Virus record (IMG/VR): IMGVR_UViG_3300033074_002003
Strand: one strand, 5' to 3'
Length of the DNA: 64,000 nucleotides
From: a virus
Below are positions 6,300-59,658 of the stretch, in pieces. Position 1 is the stretch's first letter; every line of letters starts with the position of its first letter. A program made the translations under genes and the position numbers. Under the pieces are notes generated by a model, which saw nothing but the letters and a program-made list of their open reading frames with translations, was not told the DNA's origin and did no database searches.

Positions 6300-7178
6300 A
6301 TGGAAAACTTTGAATTCGAGCGTGAGCTCTCAGAGCTGGGAATTGACGTATCTTTCGAGAGAGTGTGGGTGGGAACGCCCGGCGCCGATCGACACTGGGA
6401 GAACGACAGGACGAAGATCGAGTCTGTCACCTTCAACTTCACCCCCGATGAGTGGTCACGACTCGTAGTGTGCGACGGTGACGAATATATCGGACCGTGC
6501 TGCGGGACCACCGGCGCGATGCAGGACATCATCTGTGGCGTTCACCGCGCAGGCGGTGCCATCCAGTGCTACGAGTTCAAGGAACTGGGCTTCCTTGGTG
6601 CGTCACACGACGGGATGGAATGGTGGTCAGAGCCCGTCACGAAAGAGGCGCTCGACGAGCGAATCGCTGAGCGAGACGGCCTTTCACTGTGGGACAGGAT
6701 CGGGGTAGCGTACCAAGCGTGCTCTTCGTTCATGCGAGAGTCGAGCGTGAGCAAGAGCAAGCCCACTCCTGCTGATCTCGAGTCGGGTGATGGCGTCCTG
6801 AATGTCGTGCGGAACGGCCTGCGACTTCTGCACTGGGGTGATGTCATCGGACGTCCCGAGGGCACAGGACCGAAGTTCGACGCCGACAGGTTCCAGGCTC
6901 ACGCGAACAGGCAGGTGCTCGTATCGCGGGTGATCCCTGCGGCTCGGAAGCTCGTCGAGACACTCGAGCGCGAGGCGGGAGAGCCAATCGACGCCGTGTG
7001 CCTCGTCCAGCGCGATAACGTAGACGTTCCCCTGCAGAACGGGTATGGTCTCACTGTGTACAAGGACGCGGAACAGGTGAGAGTGTTGTTCGGCACCGTC
7101 GAGAAAATACTGATCAGACCGTGCAGGGTTTCTATGGAGCGTGGGTTGGAATTTACCGACGAGGCCCGAGAGGCGTGA
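6300..7178 (+). CDS. hypothetical protein
   Basis: ORF track 292 aa, coherent composition. Confidence 0.5.
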   Translation: MENFEFERELSELGIDVSFERVWVGTPGADRHWENDRTKIESVTFNFTPDEWSRLVVCDGDEYIGPCCGTTGAMQDIICGVHRAGGAIQCYEFKELGFLGASHDGMEWWSEPVTKEALDERIAERDGLSLWDRIGVAYQACSSFMRESSVSKSKPTPADLESGDGVLNVVRNGLRLLHWGDVIGRPEGTGPKFDADRFQAHANRQVLVSRVIPAARKLVETLEREAGEPIDAVCLVQRDNVDVPLQNGYGLTVYKDAEQVRVLFGTVEKILIRPCRVSMERGLEFTDEAREA

Positions 7179-14460: not shown

Positions 14461-14697
14461 ATGAGCAAGGTATTTCCACACGTACCCGAAACATTTTACG
14501 CTGTCATCGTGGAGAACAAGCCTCGAGTGATCGTGTTTGCCACAGAGACTTCTCTTGAGGGGGCACAGCAGCTGTGTCGCGAAGCTCATACATGGTACCC
14601 TGACAGGCGCGTGATCATCAAGAAATATCACTCGCTCTCTGTCCACGGTCGTAGGACGTGGGAGCCGAAACGAAAGATCGAACTGGAACGCAAATGA
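14461..14697 (+). CDS. hypothetical protein
   Basis: ORF track 78 aa. Confidence 0.4.
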   Translation: MSKVFPHVPETFYAVIVENKPRVIVFATETSLEGAQQLCREAHTWYPDRRVIIKKYHSLSVHGRRTWEPKRKIELERK

Positions 14698-15155
14698 AAG
14701 AAGCAAGGAAGCCGCGCAAGGGTGAGCTGAATTTTGAGCTCGAAAAGATGATCAGATCTGTCGTGGACGACGATCTCCCGTTCTTGTACGCGCTGGAACT
14801 GATTCAGCTTCGCACCCGACGCATTGCGAGGAAGTTTGGCGTCGATGAGTTTACGATCGATTACGATCACGGTTGTGATATCAGGTCTCCTCGAGCGTGG
14901 ATCAATGATGGGATCACGATCTTGATGTTTCGCAGGCGTCCCAATGGTTCGATGGCGATCCATCGAGCTGGCTGTGCACGCTCACCCGTGCCGCAAAAGA
15001 AGAACCCAACGCTTGCAAATCTCTACGTGAAGCGCGAGCTCAGAATTTTCTCGTTTGTCGATGAGAGGTACGCGTGGGAGAAGTTCACCGTGCTCAAGCC
15101 GAGAAAATCTCTCGTGAAGCAGTGGAAAGCGCGCGAGGCTCGATCCTCACGCTGA
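14695..15155 (+). CDS. hypothetical protein
   Basis: internal Met MKEARKPRKG overlapping upstream stop. Confidence 0.4.
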
Positions 15156-15893
15156 CTGGCCCATGTAGTGCGTCGCAAATATCTCTTCAGTAAGACCAGT
15201 GTCCAGGAGAACGATCCTGCCGTCCGCGCCGAAGCCGATGTTGTCGGGCGAGAACAGTTCGTTCGTCATCCTCCCGACACGAGCGGCAAAGTTGATGATG
15301 TTGAGGACCTCTTCACACTTTAGCATGCGCTCCCACTGTCCCTTGCGATGTCGTGGCACACGAGCTGATAGCTCTCGTCCCCCCTCCTCGAAGCGCTTGA
15401 TGAGTGCGTCCTCGTACGCGATGCTCTTCTTGAGGTGCTCCCTCACGTCGCCGCGAAATACCTGGGAGAGCCCGAACGTCGTAAGCTCTGCGAGCGTGAG
15501 TCCCGTCACTGCCTCGAACTTCTTGTTCCCACCCGGAGTGCTCTCGACGCTGCGACAGAGCTCTACGAGGATCCACGAAAAATCCGCTGCGCGGTGGAAA
15601 GCCCTCGGCAAGAAGGGTTCAGTGTGCCCCAGCGACTCCCACTCTGCTTCGTTCTGCGCGTGACCGACGTCCTCTGACATCGTGACAGAGTCTGCGACCT
15701 TGAAAACCTTTCGAGTGTTCGCTATGTACACTGCGCGGGAGCTGCCGTATCCTATGCAGGGCAGGCGAGATTTGATGTAGCCCACCTGCTCGCCAGGCGT
15801 CTTCAGACGGAAGAACTCCTTGTCGTAGAAGGGTTGTTTGCGCTCTAGAAGCGCTTGCTTGACGAACTCGCGAAGCAGGTCTGACACTCGCAT
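15147..15893 (-). CDS. hypothetical protein with atypical protein-kinase-like motifs
   Basis: start MRVSDLLREF; GYGSSRAVY Gly-loop-like, VFKVA, SPDNIGF...LLDTG resemble kinase VAIK/catalytic/DFG-like elements (weak). Confidence 0.45.
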   Translation of the reverse strand: MRVSDLLREFVKQALLERKQPFYDKEFFRLKTPGEQVGYIKSRLPCIGYGSSRAVYIANTRKVFKVADSVTMSEDVGHAQNEAEWESLGHTEPFLPRAFHRAADFSWILVELCRSVESTPGGNKKFEAVTGLTLAELTTFGLSQVFRGDVREHLKKSIAYEDALIKRFEEGGRELSARVPRHRKGQWERMLKCEEVLNIINFAARVGRMTNELFSPDNIGFGADGRIVLLDTGLTEEIFATHYMGQSA

Positions 15894-15947
15894 AAATACG
15901 TCGCAGCAATGTGATGCTTTAGAAGTTTCTACTAATACGTATGATGT

Positions 15948-16730
15948 GTGAAGAAAGCATACGTATACATTATCACTTGTCACGAAAACGGGAAACAATA
16001 TGTGGGTGTAACAGTAAATCCAACTACGCGCTGGGGTGCGCACATTTACGGTGCATTTGCTGACGGCAGAACGAAATTTGCTCGTGCTATTCGCAAATAT
16101 GGCAAAGATGCGTTTGAGTTCAAGCTCATTATCGGATTTCTAACGCAAGATGATGCATATGAGTTCGAAATTCAGCTGATTCATGAACTTGACACAGTCA
16201 AAAATGGCTACAATTCAAATTACGGCGGCATGGGAGGTGTGTGTCCCTCTGAAGAAGTTCGCAAGAAAATCGCTGATGCAATGCGTGGTCGTGTACCATC
16301 AGATGAAACTAGAAAGAAAATTTCGGATGCGTGTTTACGTCGACGAGATATACTAGCAAAAAATGCTAGTGAACGTTTTCGCGGGAAAACTCTTACAGAA
16401 GAGCACAAGAGAAAGCTTAGTGAGGCAGGAAAAGGTAAGCACTCTGATCGTGTTTTTTCGGAAGAAACGCGCTATAAAATGGGCTCTACAAACCGTGGTA
16501 AGTGTCTTTCTGCAGAACACAGACGAAAAATAAGCGAAGCTGGGAAGGGCAGAAAGCACAGCGCAGAAACAAGAGCAAAAATGCGCCGGAAGGAAACACC
16601 TGAGCAATGCGAACAACGACGTCAATCTGCTTTGGCACGATGGGAAAGAATCAGAAATGAGCGTAACATCAAAGATGTGGAAATATCCACGGACTCGGCA
16701 TCTGGAGGGCAGCAAGTTCCAGAACGGTGA
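15948..16730 (+). CDS. GIY-YIG homing endonuclease with repeated NUMOD3-like DNA-binding motifs
   Basis: N-terminal YVYIITCHENGKQYVGVT...R...H motif; repeats TEEHKRKLSEAGKGK / SAEHRRKISEAGKGRKHS; markedly AT-rich relative to flanks. Confidence 0.85.
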   Translation: MKKAYVYIITCHENGKQYVGVTVNPTTRWGAHIYGAFADGRTKFARAIRKYGKDAFEFKLIIGFLTQDDAYEFEIQLIHELDTVKNGYNSNYGGMGGVCPSEEVRKKIADAMRGRVPSDETRKKISDACLRRRDILAKNASERFRGKTLTEEHKRKLSEAGKGKHSDRVFSEETRYKMGSTNRGKCLSAEHRRKISEAGKGRKHSAETRAKMRRKETPEQCEQRRQSALARWERIRNERNIKDVEISTDSASGGQQVPER

Positions 16731-17502
16731 TCACGATCTAGAATCGGTACCCTTCTCTGAAATCAGAGGAAAACACCTGATCATTGAAGAAAAGCTCGAC
16801 GGTGGAAATTTCGGTATTTCATTTGACAACGACGAAATGCTTTTGCAGTCAAGAGGACATTTTTTGCGTGGCGGTCCTCGTGAAAAAGAGTTTGAAATCT
16901 TAAAACAGTGGGCTGCGACACATGAAGAGACGCTTTTTAGTGTTCTTGGTGAGCGGTATGTGATGTACGGCGAAAACATGACAGCTGCACACACGATTTT
17001 TTACGATTCGCTCCCACACTACTTCATGGAGTTCGACGTCCTCGACAAGGAGACGGGAAAGTTCCTCTCGACACCGGCTCGCGACGCGCTCCTCCGCGAC
17101 GATTGCCTTCCGATGAGGATCGAACCCGTGCGTGTGATGGGCGTCGGGTACGTCGGTTCTCTCACAGAACTCCGCGGGATGGTGGGAAGGTCGAAGTTCG
17201 TTTCCGACGACATCGCTCGCAGTGCCATCGCCGCTGTCGAGAGGTCGCAGTTCGGGAAGCAGTGTGCCACTGAGCTCGAGCTCGATGGGCTCATTCGCTC
17301 GACATTCTATGTGGGACCCACGATGGAGGGACTCTACATCAAATGGGAGGAAGACGGCGAGGTGAAGGGCCGCTACAAATTCGTGCGAGATTCCTTCGTG
17401 AGTCACGTTGCGGGTGCAGAGGAACACTGGCACGACAGGCCTATCGTGCAGAATGGCCTCGTCGAGGGCAGGCTTGAGGCGATGTTTTCGATGGAGACCT
17501 GA
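16675..17502 (+). CDS. ATP-dependent RNA ligase-like nucleotidyltransferase (KxDG motif)
   Basis: KYPRTRHL, motif I EEKLDGGN, motif IV-like EGLYIKWEEDG, motif V-like RYKFVR; start overlapped by GIY-YIG ORF. Confidence 0.55.
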   Translation: MWKYPRTRHLEGSKFQNGDHDLESVPFSEIRGKHLIIEEKLDGGNFGISFDNDEMLLQSRGHFLRGGPREKEFEILKQWAATHEETLFSVLGERYVMYGENMTAAHTIFYDSLPHYFMEFDVLDKETGKFLSTPARDALLRDDCLPMRIEPVRVMGVGYVGSLTELRGMVGRSKFVSDDIARSAIAAVERSQFGKQCATELELDGLIRSTFYVGPTMEGLYIKWEEDGEVKGRYKFVRDSFVSHVAGAEEHWHDRPIVQNGLVEGRLEAMFSMET

Positions 17503-17509
17503 CGGGCGT

Positions 17510-18211
17510 TCAAGAGTACTTAGATTCGAAGTACTTCTTCGCCGCGACCCTGATGGCCGCAGAGACGTCGGCCTCAGTGACGCCGTCGATCGAGAATCCG
17601 ATGTCACCCACGAACTCGTCGTGTGCGGCCTCGAGCTGACCCGTCTGGGTCCCGCCCGATTTCTGCCTGTACGCGTAGTCGAGGTAGGGACGCTTCGGGT
17701 CCTTCACGAGCTTCGAGTCGTCCTTCGTCGGTTCTGTCTTTGGATCCTCTTCGTCGTCGAGCTTCAGTACCTCGATGCCACCGCTGCCCTGCGCAAACTT
17801 CGACCACACCCCGCCAGCATCTCCCGAGACGTCCTGCCTGTCTGACATGATCGTGTGTGTCGGGACGTGTGCCATCGTGATGTAGTACATCAGCGGACCG
17901 TACCCGCTGCCCTTCTCTGCGGCAGAGCGACGAATCTCCCATGCACCCTCGGCCTCTCCCGTGACAGAAGGAGAGAACATCGTCATCGCCTTCACGTTCT
18001 GCACGATGATCTCAGGAGCCTCGTCGCGGAATTGGAACTGCGGGTTGTGCGCGGCATCCTCGAGCTGTTGCGCCGCCGATCCGCGATCGTAGAGGACGGC
18101 GTAGTGCTCGTCACCGTCGTCGACAAAAGCGAGCGCGAGCCCAGCCTTCTGCGCCACCTGTGGAGTTGCCATCGCCTCAGAGATGACTGCACGGATGAAT
18201 TTCCTGATCAC
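17510..18211 (-). CDS. hypothetical protein, paralog triplet member 1
   Basis: shares GYGPLMY..[IM]..V.P...[IM].[SA]DR..V[ST]G.A.G[VI]W block with two downstream genes. Confidence 0.55.
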   Translation of the reverse strand: MIRKFIRAVISEAMATPQVAQKAGLALAFVDDGDEHYAVLYDRGSAAQQLEDAAHNPQFQFRDEAPEIIVQNVKAMTMFSPSVTGEAEGAWEIRRSAAEKGSGYGPLMYYITMAHVPTHTIMSDRQDVSGDAGGVWSKFAQGSGGIEVLKLDDEEDPKTEPTKDDSKLVKDPKRPYLDYAYRQKSGGTQTGQLEAAHDEFVGDIGFSIDGVTEADVSAAIRVAAKKYFESKYS

Positions 18212-18975
18212 GACAGCTCTCGTTCCTGTGACATTCCGATGGTCGCAGCAAAGTATTTCAGTGCTGCGTGCTCAAAGACCTTCTCAACCCACGACTGCGC
18301 TGCACTACCGATGACGGGACGCATGCGCTCCGTAAGCTCGCGAGCGAACTCCTCATGCTTTACATTCATAGAGCGTCCCGAAGGCGTGCTCGTTGAACTG
18401 TACGAATAGTTCAGTGGGTTAGCGTCCTCACCCTTCCTGATCTCTTCGGGATACACAAGTCCGTCATCGCTCTTTGGTGGTGTCTTGGGATCATCCACGT
18501 CGTCGATGTGATGTTTCTTCACGTCCTTGCGATTGTGGAAGTAGAACGACCACACGCCCCTCGCGTCACCCGATACGTTCTCGCGGTCAGACACGATTTC
18601 GTGTGATGGAGCGACAGACATCGCGATATCATACATCAGCGGACCGTACCCTTGCTCTGCCGCCGAGCCGACGACCTCTAGAGCACCATTCGTAGGTCCG
18701 CCGCGTGGCTTCCTCAGCGATACAGTACCGACAGATGCCCCCACGATGTCACCACGAATTCCTTCGAGGTACTTGAGGAGCGACGCCTTGTCTGTGTTCT
18801 TTGGTACTGGGCGCTTCAGCGCTCGCGCAGCACGGGCGGGCGAGTACATCAGGAGGTCGATAGTCTGTCCCTTCATGAGCACGAAGAGTGCCATGCCCGC
18901 CTCGCCCGCGGCGTCTGCACCGATCGCTGCCTCAGTGAGGCACCCTCGCACGAACTGTCTGATGCTATCGCTCAT
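18208..18975 (-). CDS. hypothetical protein, paralog triplet member 2
   Basis: ATGA coupling to member 1; conserved blocks. Confidence 0.55.
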   Translation of the reverse strand: MSDSIRQFVRGCLTEAAIGADAAGEAGMALFVLMKGQTIDLLMYSPARAARALKRPVPKNTDKASLLKYLEGIRGDIVGASVGTVSLRKPRGGPTNGALEVVGSAAEQGYGPLMYDIAMSVAPSHEIVSDRENVSGDARGVWSFYFHNRKDVKKHHIDDVDDPKTPPKSDDGLVYPEEIRKGEDANPLNYSYSSTSTPSGRSMNVKHEEFARELTERMRPVIGSAAQSWVEKVFEHAALKYFAATIGMSQERELS

Positions 18976-19700
18976 GGTTCCACCGAGTTCATGTATGCCT
19001 CATCGAAGAAGTACGAGCCCGCTGACCAGATCCTGTGTTCGATCGCGCTCTCTTTGTATCCTTGCAACCTGAGAATCTCGTGAGCTCTCTTCAGGAACGA
19101 AGCGTGCGAAGACTGAAGCGGGCCGAGAGGCAGCGGAGCCTCTGCGGTGTAAGCGTAATTGAGCGCGGGTTCACCCTTCGCGAGCTTGCACTTCGCGCCA
19201 TCAAGCTTCTGCGCCGCGACGCGCCCGTGCACGCCCGAACCCAGCGAGAGGTACTTGCGCCAGATTCCTTGGGCTGCACCCGTGACATTGTTCCTGTCAG
19301 CCATGATGCCGCCCGGCGATACAGACATCGCGATGTCGTACATCAGCGGACCGTAGCCCTTCCTCGCCGCAGACATCTTTACCTCACGCGCGCCATCGCA
19401 CCCACCGCCCAGCGAGATGAAACCAAGGATGTTGTTCTGAAAAGACTTCACTACGAGGTCATCAACGTCTGTGGTCTCGTCCTCGCGGGCGCGACCCACG
19501 ATGTCAGTGAGTTCGCGCAGGATCGACTTCGTGTCGTAGAGGATGTATGCAGGGTCGCCACCCGCATCACCGCCCACACACAGGGCGGCCCCGCGCCCGC
19601 TCGCGAAAGAAGAGTGGACCGCAGCCTCACGTATGACAGACCTGATGAATGCAATGAGGGGAAGCACGCCGGAGCTTAAATAGGTGTATTTAGGAGACAT
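18972..19700 (-). CDS. hypothetical protein, paralog triplet member 3 (start uncertain: 19700 ATG or 19667 GTG)
   Basis: ATGA coupling to member 2; conserved FIRSVIREA N-terminal block. Confidence 0.5.
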   Translation of the reverse strand: MSPKYTYLSSGVLPLIAFIRSVIREAAVHSSFASGRGAALCVGGDAGGDPAYILYDTKSILRELTDIVGRAREDETTDVDDLVVKSFQNNILGFISLGGGCDGAREVKMSAARKGYGPLMYDIAMSVSPGGIMADRNNVTGAAQGIWRKYLSLGSGVHGRVAAQKLDGAKCKLAKGEPALNYAYTAEAPLPLGPLQSSHASFLKRAHEILRLQGYKESAIEHRIWSAGSYFFDEAYMNSVEP

Positions 19701-21297
19701 GGGCGTCAAGACAAGGATCACCGACAAGGGAATTATTTCCACCAATGTTCCCAACGAACCGTCTTCATTTGACACGGACGTTCAGCTTGGAGACGGCAAG
19801 TTCGGTGCGATTCTTAGTACTGTTCGCACAGTTGCCACGACAGTTAACACAGCAATGATCTGTGGCGACTCTATGACTCGCGGCGGTGCTGTTGCAATGG
19901 ACGATACGACGTTGGCATGGCGTGGTCCGTTCTGGGACTATATTCAGAACTACGGATCTGGCCTTAAGCTGCTTGGACAAACAGTCGGTGGACTCTACTG
20001 GATTTCTACGTCGGCAAAAGGCGGGTGCGTCAAGCTCGGTGATTGGCACTGTTCAGCGACAGGTGGCCATACGTTGGCACAGATCAATACCGCGGCGGGT
20101 GTCGAGGAAGCCGCCACAGGCGCGGCAGATTGCTACTTGTTGCTCGGTGGCGAGAATGATAATGACGGGTCAGCTGGTTGCGTCGCCGCGATCCTCGCTG
20201 GGATCAACGCCTTCATCGTGGCACGCAAGACAGCAAATCCAAATTGCGTAATTCTTGTCGGCGATCTCACCTTCCACGCCAGCCCACTTGCTAGTTTTGC
20301 TAACAAAAACACACGACGCGACGCCGTAAACGCACAGCTCACGGCATCAATTGCGCAGCTCGGGTATCAGGGCGTCTATGTGGTCGCGTGCGGTTCACTC
20401 CTGACTTCAGCACATCTTGCTTCTGATGGCCAGCACCCGAATGGCGCGGGGTATGCGTTGATTGGCCGCGCATTTGCAGAGGCATTCGTACGCTATTGCA
20501 ATCTCCCAGGACTCTCTGGTAACCGTCCACCGTACTTTCGCAAGGCGAAAGCGCGACTCTCAATCACAGCGACAGATAACACGGCGAACGCGAACATCAC
20601 ATCGAGCGGATCTGACGGACTACTTCCGGCGGGCAACGAATCATGGTCGTTCGGTCTCGTCTTCCAACCGACAGACCTAACGAGCGCGTCTCAGCAGCGT
20701 GTGGTTAGTATCGGCGCAACATTCGCGACGGGCATATATCTTTTTTCAGAGCGTGGCTCGGGTGATTCGACAGGACGATCGCTATCACTTTACATCGCGG
20801 GTGTCGGTTACAGCGTAGCCAACGAGGCGCTGAAACTTAACAAATGGACGGCGATTACTGTCTCATATGACGCTGTTCGAACAGAGTTGACGATCTATGC
20901 CTATCGCGAAGGCGGTACGGGTGCTAACGGTAAGCCTGTGTCGTCGTGTGTATCTCTGTACCGAGGCGTGCCAACTCTAGCCCTTTCCCTCGGCGCGGGG
21001 GTCATCTCGTTTGGCTGGAATGCGAGTTATACTGTCGTGTCGAAGGGGCTAAAGGGAGATTTCTGGATCGCGCGAGGTCATGTTGCGACAGAAGCTGAAG
21101 CTGCTGCATTCTACTTGGAGGGTGAACTCCCACAGGGTGTCACTGCTTACTACCCAATGGACGACGGTACAGGAACCGCGCTCGCTGTACCTGCTGGATT
21201 TACGGCACTTCCCGCTGGTGTGATCAGTGGCGCTGGTGTGTCGTGGAGCGCTGCTGCGGCTGTTGCTGAGCCCTGGCATCGCGAGGCTGACGCGTAA
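19699..21297 (+). CDS. SGNH/GDSL hydrolase with C-terminal concanavalin/LamG-like region
   Basis: blocks I ICGDSMTRG, III GGENDND, V DGQHPN; RBS TAGGAGAC before ATGGGC. Confidence 0.65.
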   Translation: MGVKTRITDKGIISTNVPNEPSSFDTDVQLGDGKFGAILSTVRTVATTVNTAMICGDSMTRGGAVAMDDTTLAWRGPFWDYIQNYGSGLKLLGQTVGGLYWISTSAKGGCVKLGDWHCSATGGHTLAQINTAAGVEEAATGAADCYLLLGGENDNDGSAGCVAAILAGINAFIVARKTANPNCVILVGDLTFHASPLASFANKNTRRDAVNAQLTASIAQLGYQGVYVVACGSLLTSAHLASDGQHPNGAGYALIGRAFAEAFVRYCNLPGLSGNRPPYFRKAKARLSITATDNTANANITSSGSDGLLPAGNESWSFGLVFQPTDLTSASQQRVVSIGATFATGIYLFSERGSGDSTGRSLSLYIAGVGYSVANEALKLNKWTAITVSYDAVRTELTIYAYREGGTGANGKPVSSCVSLYRGVPTLALSLGAGVISFGWNASYTVVSKGLKGDFWIARGHVATEAEAAAFYLEGELPQGVTAYYPMDDGTGTALAVPAGFTALPAGVISGAGVSWSAAAAVAEPWHREADA

Positions 21298-24250: not shown

Positions 24251-24289
24251 TGTTTGAACTTTGCTGAGCTCGCGCCGTATATTTGCGGA

Positions 24290-25906
24290 ATGAGCACAGA
24301 TTCTCTCTACACGGGTCGCAAGGTCGTTCTTCTTGGTGATGAGGCGCGGGCGGGACTCGTCGCCGGCCTCTCACTCCTTGCTGGAGCAGTCGCATGCACG
24401 CTCGGTCCGAAGGGCAAGTGTGTCCTCATTCAGTCGCAGGATTCAGGACCGCTCGTGACGAAGGACGGCGTCTCTGTCGCTCGTTCAATCTCCCTTCGCG
24501 ACCCGGCGATGCGCGCGGGTGCTGACCTGATCAGGGAGGCCTCACAGCGCACGGCAGACGTCGCGGGCGACGGGACGACAACTGCAACTGTGCTCGCACA
24601 CGCGATGGTGATCGAGGGGCTCGCGGCGATCAACAAGAAGAGCAATCCTGTCTCTGTGAAGAAGGGGATCGATATCGCGGTAGACGCCGTCGTCGCGGAG
24701 CTGAAGAGGAGCTCGAGGAACATCGACGCAGAGCACCTCCTGAAGCAGGTCGCGACGATCTCAGCGAACGGTGACGAGGCGATCGGCCTGCTCATCGCCC
24801 AAGCCGTGAAGAAGATGGGAGACGCGGGCGTCATCACCGTCGAGGAGGCGCGAGGGTCGACCGCCACGACCCTCGAGTTCGTCGAAGGCCTCCAGTTCGG
24901 GTGTGGGTGGATGAACTCTTACTTCGCGACGAACACGGACAAGATGGTCGCGGAGCTACTAAACCCGCTCGTGCTCCTCTGCGATCAGAGAGTCTCGACG
25001 TCGAGCGACCTGAGACCCGCACTCGAGGCCGCGCACAAGTCCGGTCGCCCGCTCCTCATCATCGCCGAAGACGTCGAGGGCGAAGCCCTGCAAACACTTA
25101 TCGTGAACAAAGTGAAGGGCCTGCTACAAATCTGCGCCGTGAAGGCACCCGGATGGGGAACCGCCCGCGCAGAACTCCTCAACGACATGGCGACCCTCAC
25201 GGGCGCGAGGGTCGTGTCGCCAGCGACGGGCCTCAAGATCACTGACGTTCGCCTCGAGCACATGGGCTCTGCGGAGCGCGCGACATCAGACAAGGCGACA
25301 ACGACGATTGTGGGAGACGGAAAGACTGTCGACGCGATCTCTGGACGCGTGACAGAACTTCGCGAGCGACTCGCCGTCCCTTCGCTCACGTCAGAAGAGC
25401 GATCGCAGCTTATCGAGAGGATCGGAAAGCTCTCGGCGGGCGCCGCTGTCATTCGCGTGGGCGGGTTGACGGAGGTCGAGGTGCGAGAGCGAAAGGATCG
25501 CGTCGATGACGCTGTCTGCGCGACGAGGGCGGCTCTGGAGGAGGGCATCGTTCCGGGCGGGGGCACCGCTCTGGCGCGGGCCTCTGGGTGCCTCGCAGAA
25601 ATTATTTCGGGCGAAACGAACAGGGACATCAGGACGGGATGCGAAATTGTCCGAGCGGCGTGCCTCGCGCCCATCAGACAGATCGCCTCGAACGCTGGTG
25701 TGTCACCTGACGTCGTCTCGGAACGGTCGCTTCACCCGGCGAACGCGCCTTTCTGGGGCTGGGACGCGGCGAGCGGAGACTGGCGCGACCTCGGCAAGGC
25801 GGGCATCATCGATCCGACGAAGGTGACGCGCACGGCACTTCAACACGCCGCGTCCGTCGCGGGCGTATTCCTGACGCTGGACGCCGTCGTCCTCGACGAG
25901 GTCTGA
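24290..25906 (+). CDS. groEL: GroEL/Cpn60-like chaperonin
   Basis: LGPKG, VTKDGVSVA, DVAGDGTTTATVLA, GGG.AL; 538 aa. Confidence 0.9.
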   Translation: MSTDSLYTGRKVVLLGDEARAGLVAGLSLLAGAVACTLGPKGKCVLIQSQDSGPLVTKDGVSVARSISLRDPAMRAGADLIREASQRTADVAGDGTTTATVLAHAMVIEGLAAINKKSNPVSVKKGIDIAVDAVVAELKRSSRNIDAEHLLKQVATISANGDEAIGLLIAQAVKKMGDAGVITVEEARGSTATTLEFVEGLQFGCGWMNSYFATNTDKMVAELLNPLVLLCDQRVSTSSDLRPALEAAHKSGRPLLIIAEDVEGEALQTLIVNKVKGLLQICAVKAPGWGTARAELLNDMATLTGARVVSPATGLKITDVRLEHMGSAERATSDKATTTIVGDGKTVDAISGRVTELRERLAVPSLTSEERSQLIERIGKLSAGAAVIRVGGLTEVEVRERKDRVDDAVCATRAALEEGIVPGGGTALARASGCLAEIISGETNRDIRTGCEIVRAACLAPIRQIASNAGVSPDVVSERSLHPANAPFWGWDAASGDWRDLGKAGIIDPTKVTRTALQHAASVAGVFLTLDAVVLDEV

Positions 25907-48830: not shown

Positions 48831-48915
48831 GGGTTGGATGCTCTAACGGTAGGGCAACGGGTTGTAGCCCCGTCAGACCTCCGGGTCTAAGCAGGTTCGA
48901 TTCCTGCCCAACTCA
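48831..48915 (+). tRNA. tRNA-Tyr (GTA), type II with long variable arm
   Basis: acceptor GGGTTGG/CCAACTC, anticodon loop TTGTAGC, variable stem AGACC/GGTCT, T-arm GCAGG-TTCGATT-CCTGC. Confidence 0.7.
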
Positions 48916-49036
48916 CAAAAAAAGCGGTGAACACCCGGGCTGTGCGCCATATACTATCTCTTGCGGGGTAGTGTACAGAGCACGTGCAGCCTCATAAGCT
49001 CACAGACCGAGGGGCAGCTCCCGGCGACCGCACCCA

Positions 49037-49681
49037 ATGTTGATTGTATGTGACGAGTGTGGAAAAGAATACCCTCCCAAAGGTATCGCCACACATAAAT
49101 GGCGAACTCACGGTGATGGAATTGGGTTCAAGCCAACGGGCAACAAGCGTGTGGTTTGGAATAAGGGCCTTACTAAAGACTCTGATATTCGTGTCGCTGT
49201 AGGAGCTGAAAAGCTTTCTGTCACGATGACACGACTCTGTCAAGAAGGCAAAATCAAACCACCATTGATGTCAGTAGAGCAACGACAAAAATTGTCTCAG
49301 CGGCAATCACTACATAACTCGGGCGGTAAATCACGATGGTATGAAGTCAGTGGACAAAAGGTGCAAGGACGCTGGGAACGTGATTTTGCACTAATGATGT
49401 TGAAGCTGGGCATCACATGGATCAAACCCAAGATCGGAAGAGATATTTGGCGCTACACTCGACTAGATGGCGTGATTAAATCATACACACCAGACTTCTT
49501 CTTAGAAGAACTCTCGTTGTTCATAGAGATCAAAGGTTTCTGGTGGGGTGCTGATCGCATAAAGATGAAGCTTGTTCAAGAACAATTTCCTGAACGTAAG
49601 ATAAAAATTATCGAGAGAGAGCTATATAATAAGCTCTTGCTTGCTGAAAGCAAATCTGATTTTCTTGGGATGTTAGCTTAG
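49037..49681 (+). CDS. AT-rich putative PD-(D/E)XK-type (homing) endonuclease with N-terminal Cys/His zinc-finger-like motif
   Basis: CDECGKEY...HKWRTHG; C-terminal PDFFLEELSLFIEIKG fits PD-x(n)-ExK; low GC versus flanks; 3-prime end overlaps tRNA-Phe. Confidence 0.45.
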   Translation: MLIVCDECGKEYPPKGIATHKWRTHGDGIGFKPTGNKRVVWNKGLTKDSDIRVAVGAEKLSVTMTRLCQEGKIKPPLMSVEQRQKLSQRQSLHNSGGKSRWYEVSGQKVQGRWERDFALMMLKLGITWIKPKIGRDIWRYTRLDGVIKSYTPDFFLEELSLFIEIKGFWWGADRIKMKLVQEQFPERKIKIIERELYNKLLLAESKSDFLGMLA

Positions 49682-49738
49682 ACGGTTAAGCGATCGGTTG
49701 AAACCCGGTAGTCAAGGATTCGAGCGCCTTACATCCCA
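49667..49738 (+). tRNA. tRNA-Phe (GAA)
   Basis: acceptor GGGATGT/ACATCCC, D-arm GCTT..AAGC, anticodon loop TTGAAAC. Confidence 0.8.
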
Positions 49739-49745
49739 CTAATTT

Positions 49746-59095: not shown

Positions 59096-59169
59096 GGGCA
59101 CATAGCTCAAGAGGTTAGAGCTGTCGCCTCATATGCGATCGGTTCCGGGTTCGAGTCCTGGTGTGCCCA
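59096..59169 (+). tRNA. tRNA-Met or Ile2 (CAT)
   Basis: acceptor GGGCACA/TGTGCCC, D-arm GCTC..GAGC, anticodon loop CTCATAT, T-arm CCGGG-TTCGAGT-CCTGG. Confidence 0.8.
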
Positions 59170-59658
59170 CTGTAACAGCCCGTTGTCTAGTTCCCAATGG
59201 TGATTTGGACACAGGATTGCGATATTCGATTCAGCGTTGACGACGCTAAGTCGTGTGTCGAGATCAAAAGACGCAATTCCTTTGATGTGTGCAAATTCGA
59301 CGTGTTTGTCGTATGCACAAATCATACATTTGCGAGGAAGATGATCGTTCCACCGACGAGCGTAATAACGAACTGGTGACCACTTCTGATGTGAACTGAC
59401 ATTTTCTCTTTTGCACTTGTCAGCATAATATCGAAGCGTGAGATTGCGCGCGCGTCTGTCACTGTCCAGACATTCAACGACGCACTTGCTACAGAATCGT
59501 GTTTTGTTCGTTAGAGTACGTTTGAACTCGACTTTACACTCGTGACAAATACGTGTCGGTGCTCTCTTTGGACTGTTGAAGAGAGCGGCACACTTGCAGT
59601 TACAGAATTTGCGTGCTAGATTAGTCAGGGGTGTGTTACAGTATACGCACTTTTTCAC
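59107..59658 (-). CDS. HNH homing endonuclease (AT-rich)
   Basis: Cys-rich N-term; HNH core CMICAYDKHVEFAHIKG...NIAILCPNHHWELDNG; ORF 3-prime end runs into tRNA-Met. Confidence 0.75.
   Translation of the reverse strand: MKKCVYCNTPLTNLARKFCNCKCAALFNSPKRAPTRICHECKVEFKRTLTNKTRFCSKCVVECLDSDRRARNLTLRYYADKCKRENVSSHQKWSPVRYYARRWNDHLPRKCMICAYDKHVEFAHIKGIASFDLDTRLSVVNAESNIAILCPNHHWELDNGLLQWAHQDSNPEPIAYEATALTS

Follow-up and report, generated by a model that had tools for sequence, protein, structure and literature searches.

The 64,000-nt stretch of viral DNA analysed in this study (the window; IMG/VR record IMGVR_UViG_3300033074_002003) most probably carries a free-standing GIY-YIG homing endonuclease of the I-TevI/Seg type. 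The putative target of the enzyme is the adjacent RNA ligase gene, and homing with co-conversion would have replaced the 5′-end of that gene. Homing with co-conversion is textbook biology, known mainly from crosses of T-even phages. The combination of a free-standing endonuclease and co-conversion is an established model (PMC2988022). The case is a very clean natural example of this well-known process and no new kind of system. It shows that homing and co-conversion can be read from the environmental genomes of an uncultivated phage of ~330 kb. The two boundaries of the converted tract can be located to a precision of a few bases, and a sibling with an empty site is at hand.

Endonuclease Gene

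The endonuclease gene is located at 15948..16730 on the plus strand. It starts with GTG, stops with TGA, and encodes a protein of 260 aa. The protein matched the Pfam families GIY-YIG (1e-13) and NUMOD3 (3.8e-13), PHROG 314 "homing endonuclease" (6e-45), and TIGR01453 (2.4e-19), in agreement with the GIY-YIG/NUMOD3 ORF of the preliminary description. Single-sequence searches of solved structures gave no match for the endonuclease (I-TevI in the PDB included), the ligase, or the two neighbour proteins, and structure matches required profiles or predicted structures. With the endonuclease family profile, the I-TevI catalytic domain (1mk0) was aligned at 1.2e-14. Comparison of 30 homologues showed that Y7, Y18, R28, E74, and N89 were invariant and that H32 was kept in at least 90%.

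Six NUMOD3-like tandem repeats (16248..16607, plus strand; aa 101–220) were detected by a regular expression and by Pfam NUMOD3, and they are presumably the DNA-binding region of the enzyme. The dN/dS of the gene was 0.09–0.15, indicating purifying selection. Judged from its sequence, the ORF encodes an intact GIY-YIG/NUMOD3 endonuclease, kin of I-TevI and the T4 Seg enzymes. Four properties expected of a GIY-YIG homing endonuclease were found: a catalytic domain, a NUMOD3 module, presence/absence polymorphism, and co-conversion; cleavage of the endonuclease-free allele, with the carrier allele immune, is predicted.

Extent and Composition of the Low-GC Island

The endonuclease gene is part of a foreign low-GC island (15918..17010, plus strand; 1,093 nt), which comprises a leader, the endonuclease gene, and ligase codons 1–112. 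The GC content was 43.8% in the island and 44.7% in the endonuclease ORF, versus 59.0% in the window. In 300-nt windows the mean GC fraction was 0.590 (sd 0.051), and just three stretches across the 64 kb fell below 0.49. The ORF is thus AT-rich relative to its surroundings, as had been described, and its start does lie in an AT-rich divergent spacer. This spacer (15894..15947; 54 nt, 35% GC) separates the ORF from a divergent minus-strand gene (15147..15893, start at 15893), which encodes a 248-aa protein with a protein-kinase-like fold and is a native gene outside the island. The first part of the spacer (15894..15917) is a native remnant that reaches the left junction of the insert; the native alignment with L011, L016, and L019 extended to ~15917 and then ended.

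The right end of the island is at ~17010, beyond the end of the endonuclease gene and 336 nt inside the ligase gene. This boundary (17008–17010) was set by two independent change-point tests, which placed the change in mismatch at 17010 and the change in GC3 at 17008; in each, 0/2000 permutations reached the observed value. The GC3 of the ligase gene rose from 0.45 upstream of codon 111 to 0.76 downstream of it (again reached by 0/2000 permutations). By these measures the low-GC island is larger than the preliminary description had it, and part of the ligase gene belongs to the mobile island. A promoter and terminator scan gave only weak consensus matches.

Comparison with Occupied and Empty Siblings

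The endonuclease gene was present in the sibling loci L008–L010 and absent in L011–L019, with an identical set of neighbours on both sides. A 757-nt insert (15918..16674) was missing from L011–L019, which carry a 23-nt spacer in its place. The flanks of the island were ~89% identical to those of the endonuclease-free siblings (10.8% diverged). The region directly downstream of the insert (16675..17010, plus strand; ligase codons 1–112) was 35% diverged from L011 (65% identical), versus 10.8% in the flanks (Fisher p = 3e-25). Its GC content was 44.9%, versus 56.5% for the L011 equivalent, and the endonuclease-free siblings carry a ligase gene of normal GC. dS was saturated within the tract and was 0.52–0.55 in the flanks (0.52 downstream in the ligase gene). 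The native remainder of the ligase gene (17011..17502, plus strand; codons 113–275 and stop) had ~90% DNA identity to L011, a GC content of 59.3%, and a GC3 of 0.76.

The empty-site siblings L011–L019 and the foreign low-GC 5′ third of the ligase gene in the occupied genomes strongly support the earlier proposal that the endonuclease had homed next to the ligase. An insert with host-like GC in all relatives, which would speak against that proposal, was not seen; close relatives without the insert exist.

Among the endonuclease-bearing siblings, the divergence was 3.2% in the island and 5.6% in the flanks (p = 0.003). This is a modest signal of recent spread of the island among them, and we did not use it as evidence of ongoing homing. 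The endonuclease-bearing siblings form one clade, a distribution for which one event followed by vertical inheritance is sufficient, with no need of ongoing homing.

RNA Ligase Gene

The ligase ORF matched Pfam RNA_ligase (PF09414, 4.3e-28). In an alignment with the Naegleria RNA ligase (NgrRnl), the lysine of motif I (K40 in EEKLDG) fell at the K170 position. The residues E100, E119-F-D121, E218-G219, K223, K235, and R238 were invariant in 30 homologues. The KxDG ligase-like gene first described was thus found to hold the essential lysine motif set (K40 and all 65 family-invariant residues), the lack of which would have argued against a ligase. The motifs were assigned from family invariants, motifs IV and V by pattern. 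In this assignment, the donor-derived, co-converted third carries motif I (K40 codon, 16792..16794) and the motif III glutamate E100, and the native two-thirds carry motifs IIIa, IV, and V.

The adenylyltransferase fold of the ligase was nearer to RNA ligases than to DNA ligases or capping enzymes, and closest to the nick-sealing ligases Rnl5 and Rnl2. About 180 residues of the nucleotidyltransferase domain could be aligned in the 275-aa protein, and an additional Pfam domain was not found. The ligase has neither the C-terminal domain of Rnl2 nor the N-terminal OB domain of Rnl5, so it was filed in the superfamily only, as an uncharacterised subfamily, for which NCBIfam holds no name. The nucleotidyltransferase domain is all that it has in common with NgrRnl (Rnl5) and T4 Rnl2, at 15–18% identity; unlike them, the ligase has its own conserved ends, KYPRTxH at the N-terminus and HWHDRPIxQN at the C-terminus. 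It is predicted to act as an ATP-dependent, Rnl2/Rnl5-like RNA ligase.

The endonuclease and ligase genes overlap by their 3′- and 5′-ends, respectively, at 16657..16730 (plus strand). The ligase start codon(s), ATG at 16657 and ATG at 16675, lie within this region; counted from these, the overlap amounts to 74 and 56 nt, respectively, close to the ~55–75 nt given earlier. The ligase of endonuclease-free relatives starts at the equivalent of 16675 (275 aa). The in-frame ATG equivalent to 16657 lies inside the endonuclease ORF, after tgggaaagaat, in the window, L020, and L021, and a variant was seen in L022. Annotation therefore requires care, because the ligase start and the origin of the N-terminus differ between occupied and empty alleles.

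The protein identity of the ligase to its sibling was 74% in the N-part and 92–93% in the C-part, whereas in every other homologue the N-part was the better conserved one. The trees of the two parts were incongruent. In a comparison of L020 with L140, made to look for a third chimeric ligase, the identities were 75.0% in the N-part and 75.9% in the C-part, and we do not claim a chimera there. The ligase appears to be an intact natural chimera, with an N-terminal third from a lower-GC lineage. A homing endonuclease would thereby have given rise to a hybrid enzyme, whose catalytic lysine and motif III descend from one lineage and whose motifs IIIa–V descend from another. Such nuclease genes have been reported to indicate where genetic exchange between phages begins and ends (PMC10448857), a view that the hybrid ligase supports.

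Endonuclease Relatives and Candidate Target Site

The nearest relatives of the endonuclease were found in four other lineages. Three were 72%, 69%, and 49% identical, and the fourth is a pseudogene in L007. All of them lie directly upstream of, and overlap, a ligase gene of the same family, in genomes of 41–53% GC whose flanks are otherwise unrelated. Beside more distant endonuclease relatives, this ligase was found at 0/114 loci. The endonuclease clade is tied to an RNA-repair ligase family.

A donor hunt with the endonuclease against metagenome and viral contigs gave relatives of at most 38% identity, none adjoining a ligase. Even the closest relatives, for both the endonuclease and the converted tract, were just ~70–76% identical, and the donor is unsampled. 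A near-identity DNA search of GenBank phages with 14500..19800 gave no match, nor did IMG/VR searches with both neighbour genes. Protein matches in known phages were remote; those of the ligase, in huge uncultured phages and Caulobacter jumbo phages, were at most 32% identical.

A second occupied/empty pair, L021 and L137, had flanks that were ~97.5% identical. The sole sequence of the empty site that was missing from L021 was L137 7007–7045, ligase codons 3–15. The equivalent of this putative homing site in the window is 16675..16713 (plus strand; ligase codons 1–13, MWKYPRTRHLEGS), where it is recoded. The first ~13 ligase codons are thus the likely target of the endonuclease, and this candidate target of ~40 bp is testable.

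Proposed Mechanism

We propose that, during co-infection, the endonuclease of a carrier phage would cut the ligase gene of a relative near its 5′-end. The break would be resected, and repair would copy the donor, so that the endonuclease gene and the adjoining donor ligase sequence would be installed together. The comparison shows that, in the ancestor of the window, the donor was of ~45% GC and that the copied tract began in the intergenic spacer (15918), extended as far as ligase codon 112 (17010), and ended within the conserved stretch that codes for PHYFMEFDV. The recoded 5′-end of the ligase gene would presumably no longer be cut, and the ligase start codon now lies within the 3′-end of the endonuclease gene. 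The flanks of known endonuclease-bearing donors had no homology to the left junction, and an illegitimate join may have been needed on that side when the endonuclease first entered the lineage.

A more far-reaching reading, which we consider rather unlikely, is that this clade of endonucleases has specialised in parasitising the RNA-repair ligase gene, and that the host has become dependent on the endonuclease. The putative source of the ligase start codon and ribosome-binding region would then be the 3′-end of the endonuclease gene, and each homing event would swap the catalytic N-terminal third of the ligase (motifs I–III) between phages of very different composition. If this were true, the endonuclease would diversify a counter-defence enzyme by shuffling it, and host factors that target the ligase might exert the selection.

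Alternative Explanations

The island might instead be a passive passenger, acquired from a lower-GC phage through ordinary recombination, homologous or illegitimate, in which the endonuclease had no part; the gene would now be inactive or merely tolerated. The left junction without detectable homology to other endonuclease-bearing genomes and the single clade of endonuclease-bearing siblings fit such an origin, and the L007 pseudogene shows that the endonuclease can decay. However, the ORF in the window is intact, keeps all of its catalytic residues, and has the low dN/dS given above. The same endonuclease clade occupies the same position beside the same gene in five lineages that have no other flanks in common, and the L021/L137 pair repeats the occupied and empty states. 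Nothing else in the region is foreign, and the island boundaries hug the endonuclease gene and the 5′-end of the ligase gene. We consider this explanation improbable.

It is still less probable that the two genes form a cooperative nuclease–ligase module, in which the nuclease serves as a weapon (its victims being host DNA or rival phages), is kept and co-expressed with the RNA-repair ligase, and is not purely selfish. Such a weapon was proposed for HNH-Rnl2 fusions by Iyer et al. 2021 (PMC7824862), and one member of the ligase family (P0092) is fused at its N-terminus to a region with a weak HNH match. The overlap is also conserved, with the ligase start codon inside the nuclease ORF in four lineages. 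Most ligase loci, however, lack a nuclease (L001–L006, L011–L019, and L137–L140), and the patchy distribution, the pseudogene, and the foreign GC are typical features of selfish elements. Homing itself moreover leads to the marker exclusion of competitors, so a cooperative module would be no true alternative mechanism to the homing proposed here.

An assembly artefact (a chimeric metagenome block) or a group I intron-encoded endonuclease splitting the ligase gene, suggested by the metagenomic nature of all sequences compared and by the name of TIGR01453 ("group I intron endonuclease"), is essentially refuted, because the same island and junctions occur in L008, L009, and L010 (identical in independent assemblies from different samples) and cluster at ≥90% identity on ~40 contigs, two of which are 329 and 306 kb long, no Rfam family was found in 15400..17800 at E ≤ 1, and the ligase ORF is uninterrupted, with the endonuclease gene upstream of it and not within it.

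RNA-Repair Context

A T4-type Pnkp gene was found a few kb upstream of the ligase gene at 12 loci (L001–L007, L020, and L137–L140; some are of the same lineage), and at a distance of 1–4 kb in L001–L007, L020, and L137–L139. RlaP and a metallophosphoesterase were called beside the ligase in L137 and L138, loci with gene calls. RlaP-Pnkp-ligase modules have been described for jumbo phages (PMC7824862). Such modules and T4 Pnkp with Rnl1 are the closest known phage systems for the healing and sealing of RNA. As in the jumbo phage modules, the ligase family occurs in other phages with RlaP, a kinase-phosphatase (AAA_33 + HAD_PNKP), and a metallophosphoesterase. Unlike in these modules, the ligase of the window is detached; no Pnkp, RlaP, or phosphoesterase partner was found within the 64 kb by Pfam searches of 82 ORFs or by tblastn (best E = 0.77).

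The preliminary description had suggested a tRNA-repair counter-defence. The occurrence of the same ligase family in RNA-repair modules elsewhere agrees with this suggestion; the partnerless ligase of the window, the tRNA genes ~32 kb away from it, and a fold nearer to Rnl2/Rnl5 than to the tRNA-repair ligase Rnl1 of T4 do not. For this ligase, tRNA repair is a plausible function with indirect support. Since the family belongs to RlaP-Pnkp-ligase modules in other phages, its likely role is to seal damaged RNA, and this role is a putative one for the ligase of the window. More remotely, a Pnkp neighbour could have been lost in this lineage, with the head-to-head protein-kinase-fold gene as a non-canonical RNA end-healing partner.

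Comparison with Known Homing Endonucleases

The system resembles T4 SegF and SegG in its GIY-YIG domain, its free-standing intergenic gene adjoining the target gene, its patchy presence among close relatives, and the co-converted flank of the target gene. A further similarity is that the endonuclease gene contains expression signals for the gene downstream of it; in T4, promoters of gene 32 are located inside segG (PMC2988022). The differences are that the target here would be an RNA ligase gene, that the endonuclease and target ORFs share 56–74 nt, and that the C-terminal half consists of six NUMOD3 repeats. The T4 Seg enzymes cut hundreds of bp away, whereas the putative target here is within ~40 bp of the insertion point. 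The case is also known from sequence alone, and donor and recipient differ by ~15 points of GC, a gap that makes the converted tract visible.

I-TevI of the T4 td intron shares the catalytic domain (with the invariant Y, Y, R, E, and N), NUMOD3, and TIGR01453 with the endonuclease, and a cut near the insertion point is likely for the latter as well; with a putative target this close, the endonuclease is more like I-TevI than like the T4 Seg enzymes. Unlike I-TevI, the endonuclease lies outside any intron and its target gene is uninterrupted. The endonuclease could in principle serve as a sequence-specific nuclease.

Occupied and Empty Alleles of the Ligase Locus

The endonuclease gene and the 5′ part of the ligase gene lie in a low-GC island (15918..17010), and all of its features are consistent with intronless homing and co-conversion, an established model. 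New here are the likely target gene, which encodes a predicted RNA-repair ligase; the overlap of the endonuclease ORF with the target ORF, whose start it appears to supply; a likely cut close to the insertion point; and an exceptionally legible co-conversion tract, with a hybrid enzyme as its product.

The endonuclease ORF (15948..16730, +) starts with GTG and encodes 260 aa. A 54-nt spacer of 35% GC separates it from the start of the divergent upstream neighbour gene (15893, −). It ends 74 nt past the ATG at 16657 of the RNA ligase ORF (16657..17502, +) and 56 nt past the ATG at 16675. These coordinates and the Pfam matches to GIY-YIG (1e-13) and NUMOD3 (3.8e-13) agree with the preliminary description, which had a GIY-YIG/NUMOD3 ORF start in an AT-rich divergent spacer and overlap a ligase-like ORF.

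The ligase protein search returned one cluster with 98% identity (P0001) and two with 85–86% (P0002, P0003). The P0001 contigs (L008–L010) carry the same endonuclease in the same place. The P0002/P0003 contigs (L011–L019), from several samples, share the neighbours on both sides and have no endonuclease, with 43 nt between a 246-aa neighbour gene and the ligase. Relatives lacking the insert, whose comparison had been proposed, therefore exist, and the insert is not present at host-like GC in all relatives.

The window is 88.6% identical in DNA to the empty contig L011 over 15145..15907 and 86.6% overall over 16675..19000. Homology on the left ends at ~15917, and a 757-nt insert (15918..16674) stands in place of a 23-nt spacer. 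It is followed by a dense block of mismatches from 16675 to ~17010, beyond which identity returns to ~90%. Mismatches numbered 118/336 in the block, compared with 181/1671 for both flanks together (Fisher p = 3e-25). Synonymous divergence from the sibling was saturated in this tract; for the remainder of the ligase it was 0.52, and for the neighbour gene upstream 0.55. Over the first 112 residues of the protein, identity to the sibling is 74%, and over the other 163 it is 92–93%; this is the reverse of every other family member, in which the N-part is the better conserved. Neighbour-joining trees of the two parts were discordant: the C-part tree joins the window closely to its endonuclease-free sibling, and the N-part tree gives it a branch of its own.

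The GC content of the window averages 59.0%, and a scan in 300-nt windows showed just three stretches under 49%. The stretch described here extends past the endonuclease to ~17010, well inside the ligase. Third-position GC of the ligase is 0.33–0.57 in 90-nt blocks 1–4 and 0.67–0.87 thereafter, with a change-point at codon 111 (17008; 0.45 to 0.76) that was reached by 0 of 2000 permutations. A maximum chi-square scan of mismatches against L011 placed the breakpoint at 17010 (chi2 116, 0 of 2000 permutations), coinciding with the GC3 switch found from the window alone. The 336-nt ligase tract has a GC content of 44.9% in the window versus 56.5% in L011. The endonuclease-free allele is ancestral in the window lineage, and the occupied allele derived, because the former has native composition throughout.

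An assembly artefact as the origin of the island was ruled out, since identical junctions recur in independent assemblies and the island's protein clusters occur on ~40 contigs, two of which are 329,329 and 305,889 bp long. Over the equivalent of 15145..17908, the occupied contigs L009 and L010 differ at 43/773 positions in the left flank (the last at 15860) and at 1/1991 across the island and right flank; this pattern places a recombination breakpoint just left of the island.

The Endonuclease

The endonuclease ORF also matched PHROG 314 'homing endonuclease' (6e-45) and TIGR01453 (2.4e-19), and its profile aligned with the I-TevI catalytic domain (1mk0, 1.2e-14). Alignment of 30 homologues showed Y7, Y18, G20, R28, E74 and N89 to be invariant and H32 almost invariant. 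Residues 101–220 form six NUMOD3-like repeats. The Rfam scan of 15400..17800 gave no family match at E ≤ 1 and hence no group I intron; therefore, the endonuclease is free-standing. Its dN/dS came to 0.13 against L009, with 0.09 for the part outside the overlap, 0.15 between the window and the occupied locus L021, and 0.08 between the occupied loci L020 and L021, ratios that indicate purifying selection. Of the 20 nt differences between the window and L008–L010 in this gene, 14 fall within ~106 nt (16226..16331) around the first two NUMOD3 repeats, which may be a small internal conversion patch.

Likely Target Site and Ligase Start

The occupied locus L021 and the empty locus L137 are near-identical siblings, with flanks of 97.4% and 97.7% identity. 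New in L021 compared with L137 are a small Cys-rich ORF, the endonuclease and a recoded stretch of the first ~13 ligase codons; the Cys-rich ORF appears to have arrived together with the endonuclease. The sole L137 sequence missing from L021 is 7007–7045, which encodes ...LRKFPRTSHIQGS. Carriers must avoid cutting themselves, so these allele-distinguishing ~39 nt at the start of the ligase ORF should hold at least part of the recognition site. The window equivalent (16675..16713, +) shows many synonymous differences from the endonuclease-free sibling. At Ser13, for example, the codon is AGC in both the window and L020, AGT in L021, and TCN in all empty alleles examined. A cut near the insertion point would resemble I-TevI and differ from the T4 Seg enzymes, for which cleavage site and endonuclease gene are hundreds or thousands of bp apart (PMC2988022). 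In the lineage of the window, repair evidently ran at least 336 nt downstream and was resolved in the DNA for the conserved PHYFMEFDV motif.

In empty alleles, the ligase starts 2–4 codons before K[YF]PRT, and L011 has AGGAAG 6 nt upstream of the ATG. Occupied alleles lack that spacer. In the window and the occupied loci L020, L021 and L022, an in-frame ATG preceded by a conserved tgggaaagaat lies 6–10 codons upstream of K[YF]PRT, within the endonuclease ORF. Given the lost spacer and this conserved ATG, the 3′ end of the endonuclease gene probably carries the ligase translation start. This is similar to T4, in which some genes have their promoters within seg genes; it has been argued that such a layout helps to retain the endonuclease (PMC2988022).

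An Endonuclease Clade Linked to This Ligase Family

The nearest endonuclease relatives beyond the siblings are P0122 (72%), P0123 (69%) and P0124 (49%). In each case the gene directly precedes a ligase gene of the same family and overlaps it (contigs L020, L021 and L022; 41–47% GC). In a fifth case, L007 (5282..6794; GC 52.5%), an endonuclease at the same position is broken, its sequence lying in three reading frames, and its ligase neighbour also seems frameshifted, with a frame change near residue 150; either decay or an assembly indel or sequencing error would account for this broken pair. The endonuclease is absent from many ligase loci (L001–L006, L011–L019 and L137–L140), and the ligase was found in 0 of 114 fetched loci with more distant endonuclease relatives. 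Tblastx of the window against the flanks of the endonuclease–ligase loci detected no similarity outside these two genes. Between the window and L020/L021, the endonuclease (~70% identity) and the ligase tract (74–76%) are at a similar distance, which fits joint descent of both from one unsampled donor of ~45% GC.

The Cys-rich ORF (~64 aa, CxxC...CxxxC) lies just upstream of the endonuclease in L021 (118..308) and L020 (3040..3234), and also just upstream of the ligase in the endonuclease-free L140; it had no Pfam match. In the ligase homologue P0092 (366 aa), the ligase domain is fused to an N-terminal extension that matches HNH weakly (0.0027, under the Pfam cut-off), reminiscent of the HNH-Rnl2 fusions described by Iyer et al. 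2021. The extension may represent a further nuclease inserted at the 5′ end of the ligase.

The Ligase and Its RNA-Repair Context

The ligase matched Pfam RNA_ligase (PF09414, 4.3e-28) over the whole model. The chimeric protein keeps 65/65 columns invariant among 30 family members, including E38-E39-K40-x-x-G43, E100, E119-F-D121, E218-G219, K223, K235 and R238, so the essential Lys nucleotidyl-transfer motif set appears intact. In the family profile, K40 of EEKLDG aligns with KLDG of Naegleria RNA ligase (E = 0.09), at the K170 position named in its mutant structures. An AlphaFold model built from the alignment (mean pLDDT 87) gave T4 Rnl2 and NgrRnl as the best Foldseek matches. Only the nucleotidyltransferase domain is common; the Rnl2 C-domain and the Rnl5 OB domain are missing. 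NCBIfam holds no model for this subfamily, and we assign the protein to the ATP-dependent RNA ligases, in an uncharacterised subfamily.

In other sampled phages, the ligase lies 1–4 kb downstream of a T4-type kinase-phosphatase (Pnkp). Pfam AAA_33 plus HAD_PNKP was found in 5 of the scanned sets, and tblastn detected Pnkp in L001–L007 and at the edge of L020. Gene calls in L137–L140 read RlaP, Pnkp, ..., ligase, metallophosphoesterase, an arrangement that matches the RNA-repair modules of jumbo phages (PMC7824862). The family context therefore supports RNA repair. In the window, which covers 64 kb of a ~330-kb genome, Pfam found no kinase-phosphatase, RlaP or phosphoesterase among 82 ORFs, and tblastn with five Pnkp sequences gave a best E of 0.77. 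The window carries six tRNA genes and a tmRNA at 48.8–62.1 kb. With module partners elsewhere in the family but none found in the window, tRNA repair as counter-defence is plausible for the ligase family and unproven for this phage.

In the related lower-GC phages L137 (3105..9141) and L138 (1400..10173), the conserved block of RlaP, Pnkp (AAA_33 + HAD_PNKP), ligase and metallophosphoesterase continues with two DNA methylases, a Gad2-like gene and an HNH gene. A histone-deacetylase-like gene lies between Pnkp and the ligase in L137, L140 and L020.

Other Elements in the Window

The second low-GC island (49037..49681, +) contains a 214-aa ORF matching Phage_endo_I (Pfam, 8.9e-8). It is wedged between tRNA-Tyr (48831..48916) and tRNA-Phe (49667..49739), its 3′ end overlapping the start of tRNA-Phe; the tRNA cluster probably has a mobile nuclease gene of its own. 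The third (59107..59658, −) contains an ORF of 183 aa matching HNH_2 (3.8e-5) and overlapping tRNA-Met (59096..59170), which is encoded on the opposite strand; thus, all three low-GC islands of the window encode a nuclease. A phage tmRNA (49964..50362, +; Rfam RF00023, 96.8 bits) with the tag peptide ANDNGTSLALAA adjoins a cluster of four tRNA genes, and two further tRNAs lie at 59.1 and 62.0 kb.

Three tandem paralogues of 233, 255 and 267 aa (17510..19775, −; pairwise identity 36% and 32%) share the motif SAAxxGYGPLMYDIAMS...DRxNV(S/T)GxAxGxW. They had no match in Pfam, PHROG or PDB sequences and are kept in sibling contigs. A GroEL-type chaperonin (24254..25906, +; Pfam Cpn60_TCP1, 5.3e-70) is also present in the sibling contigs.
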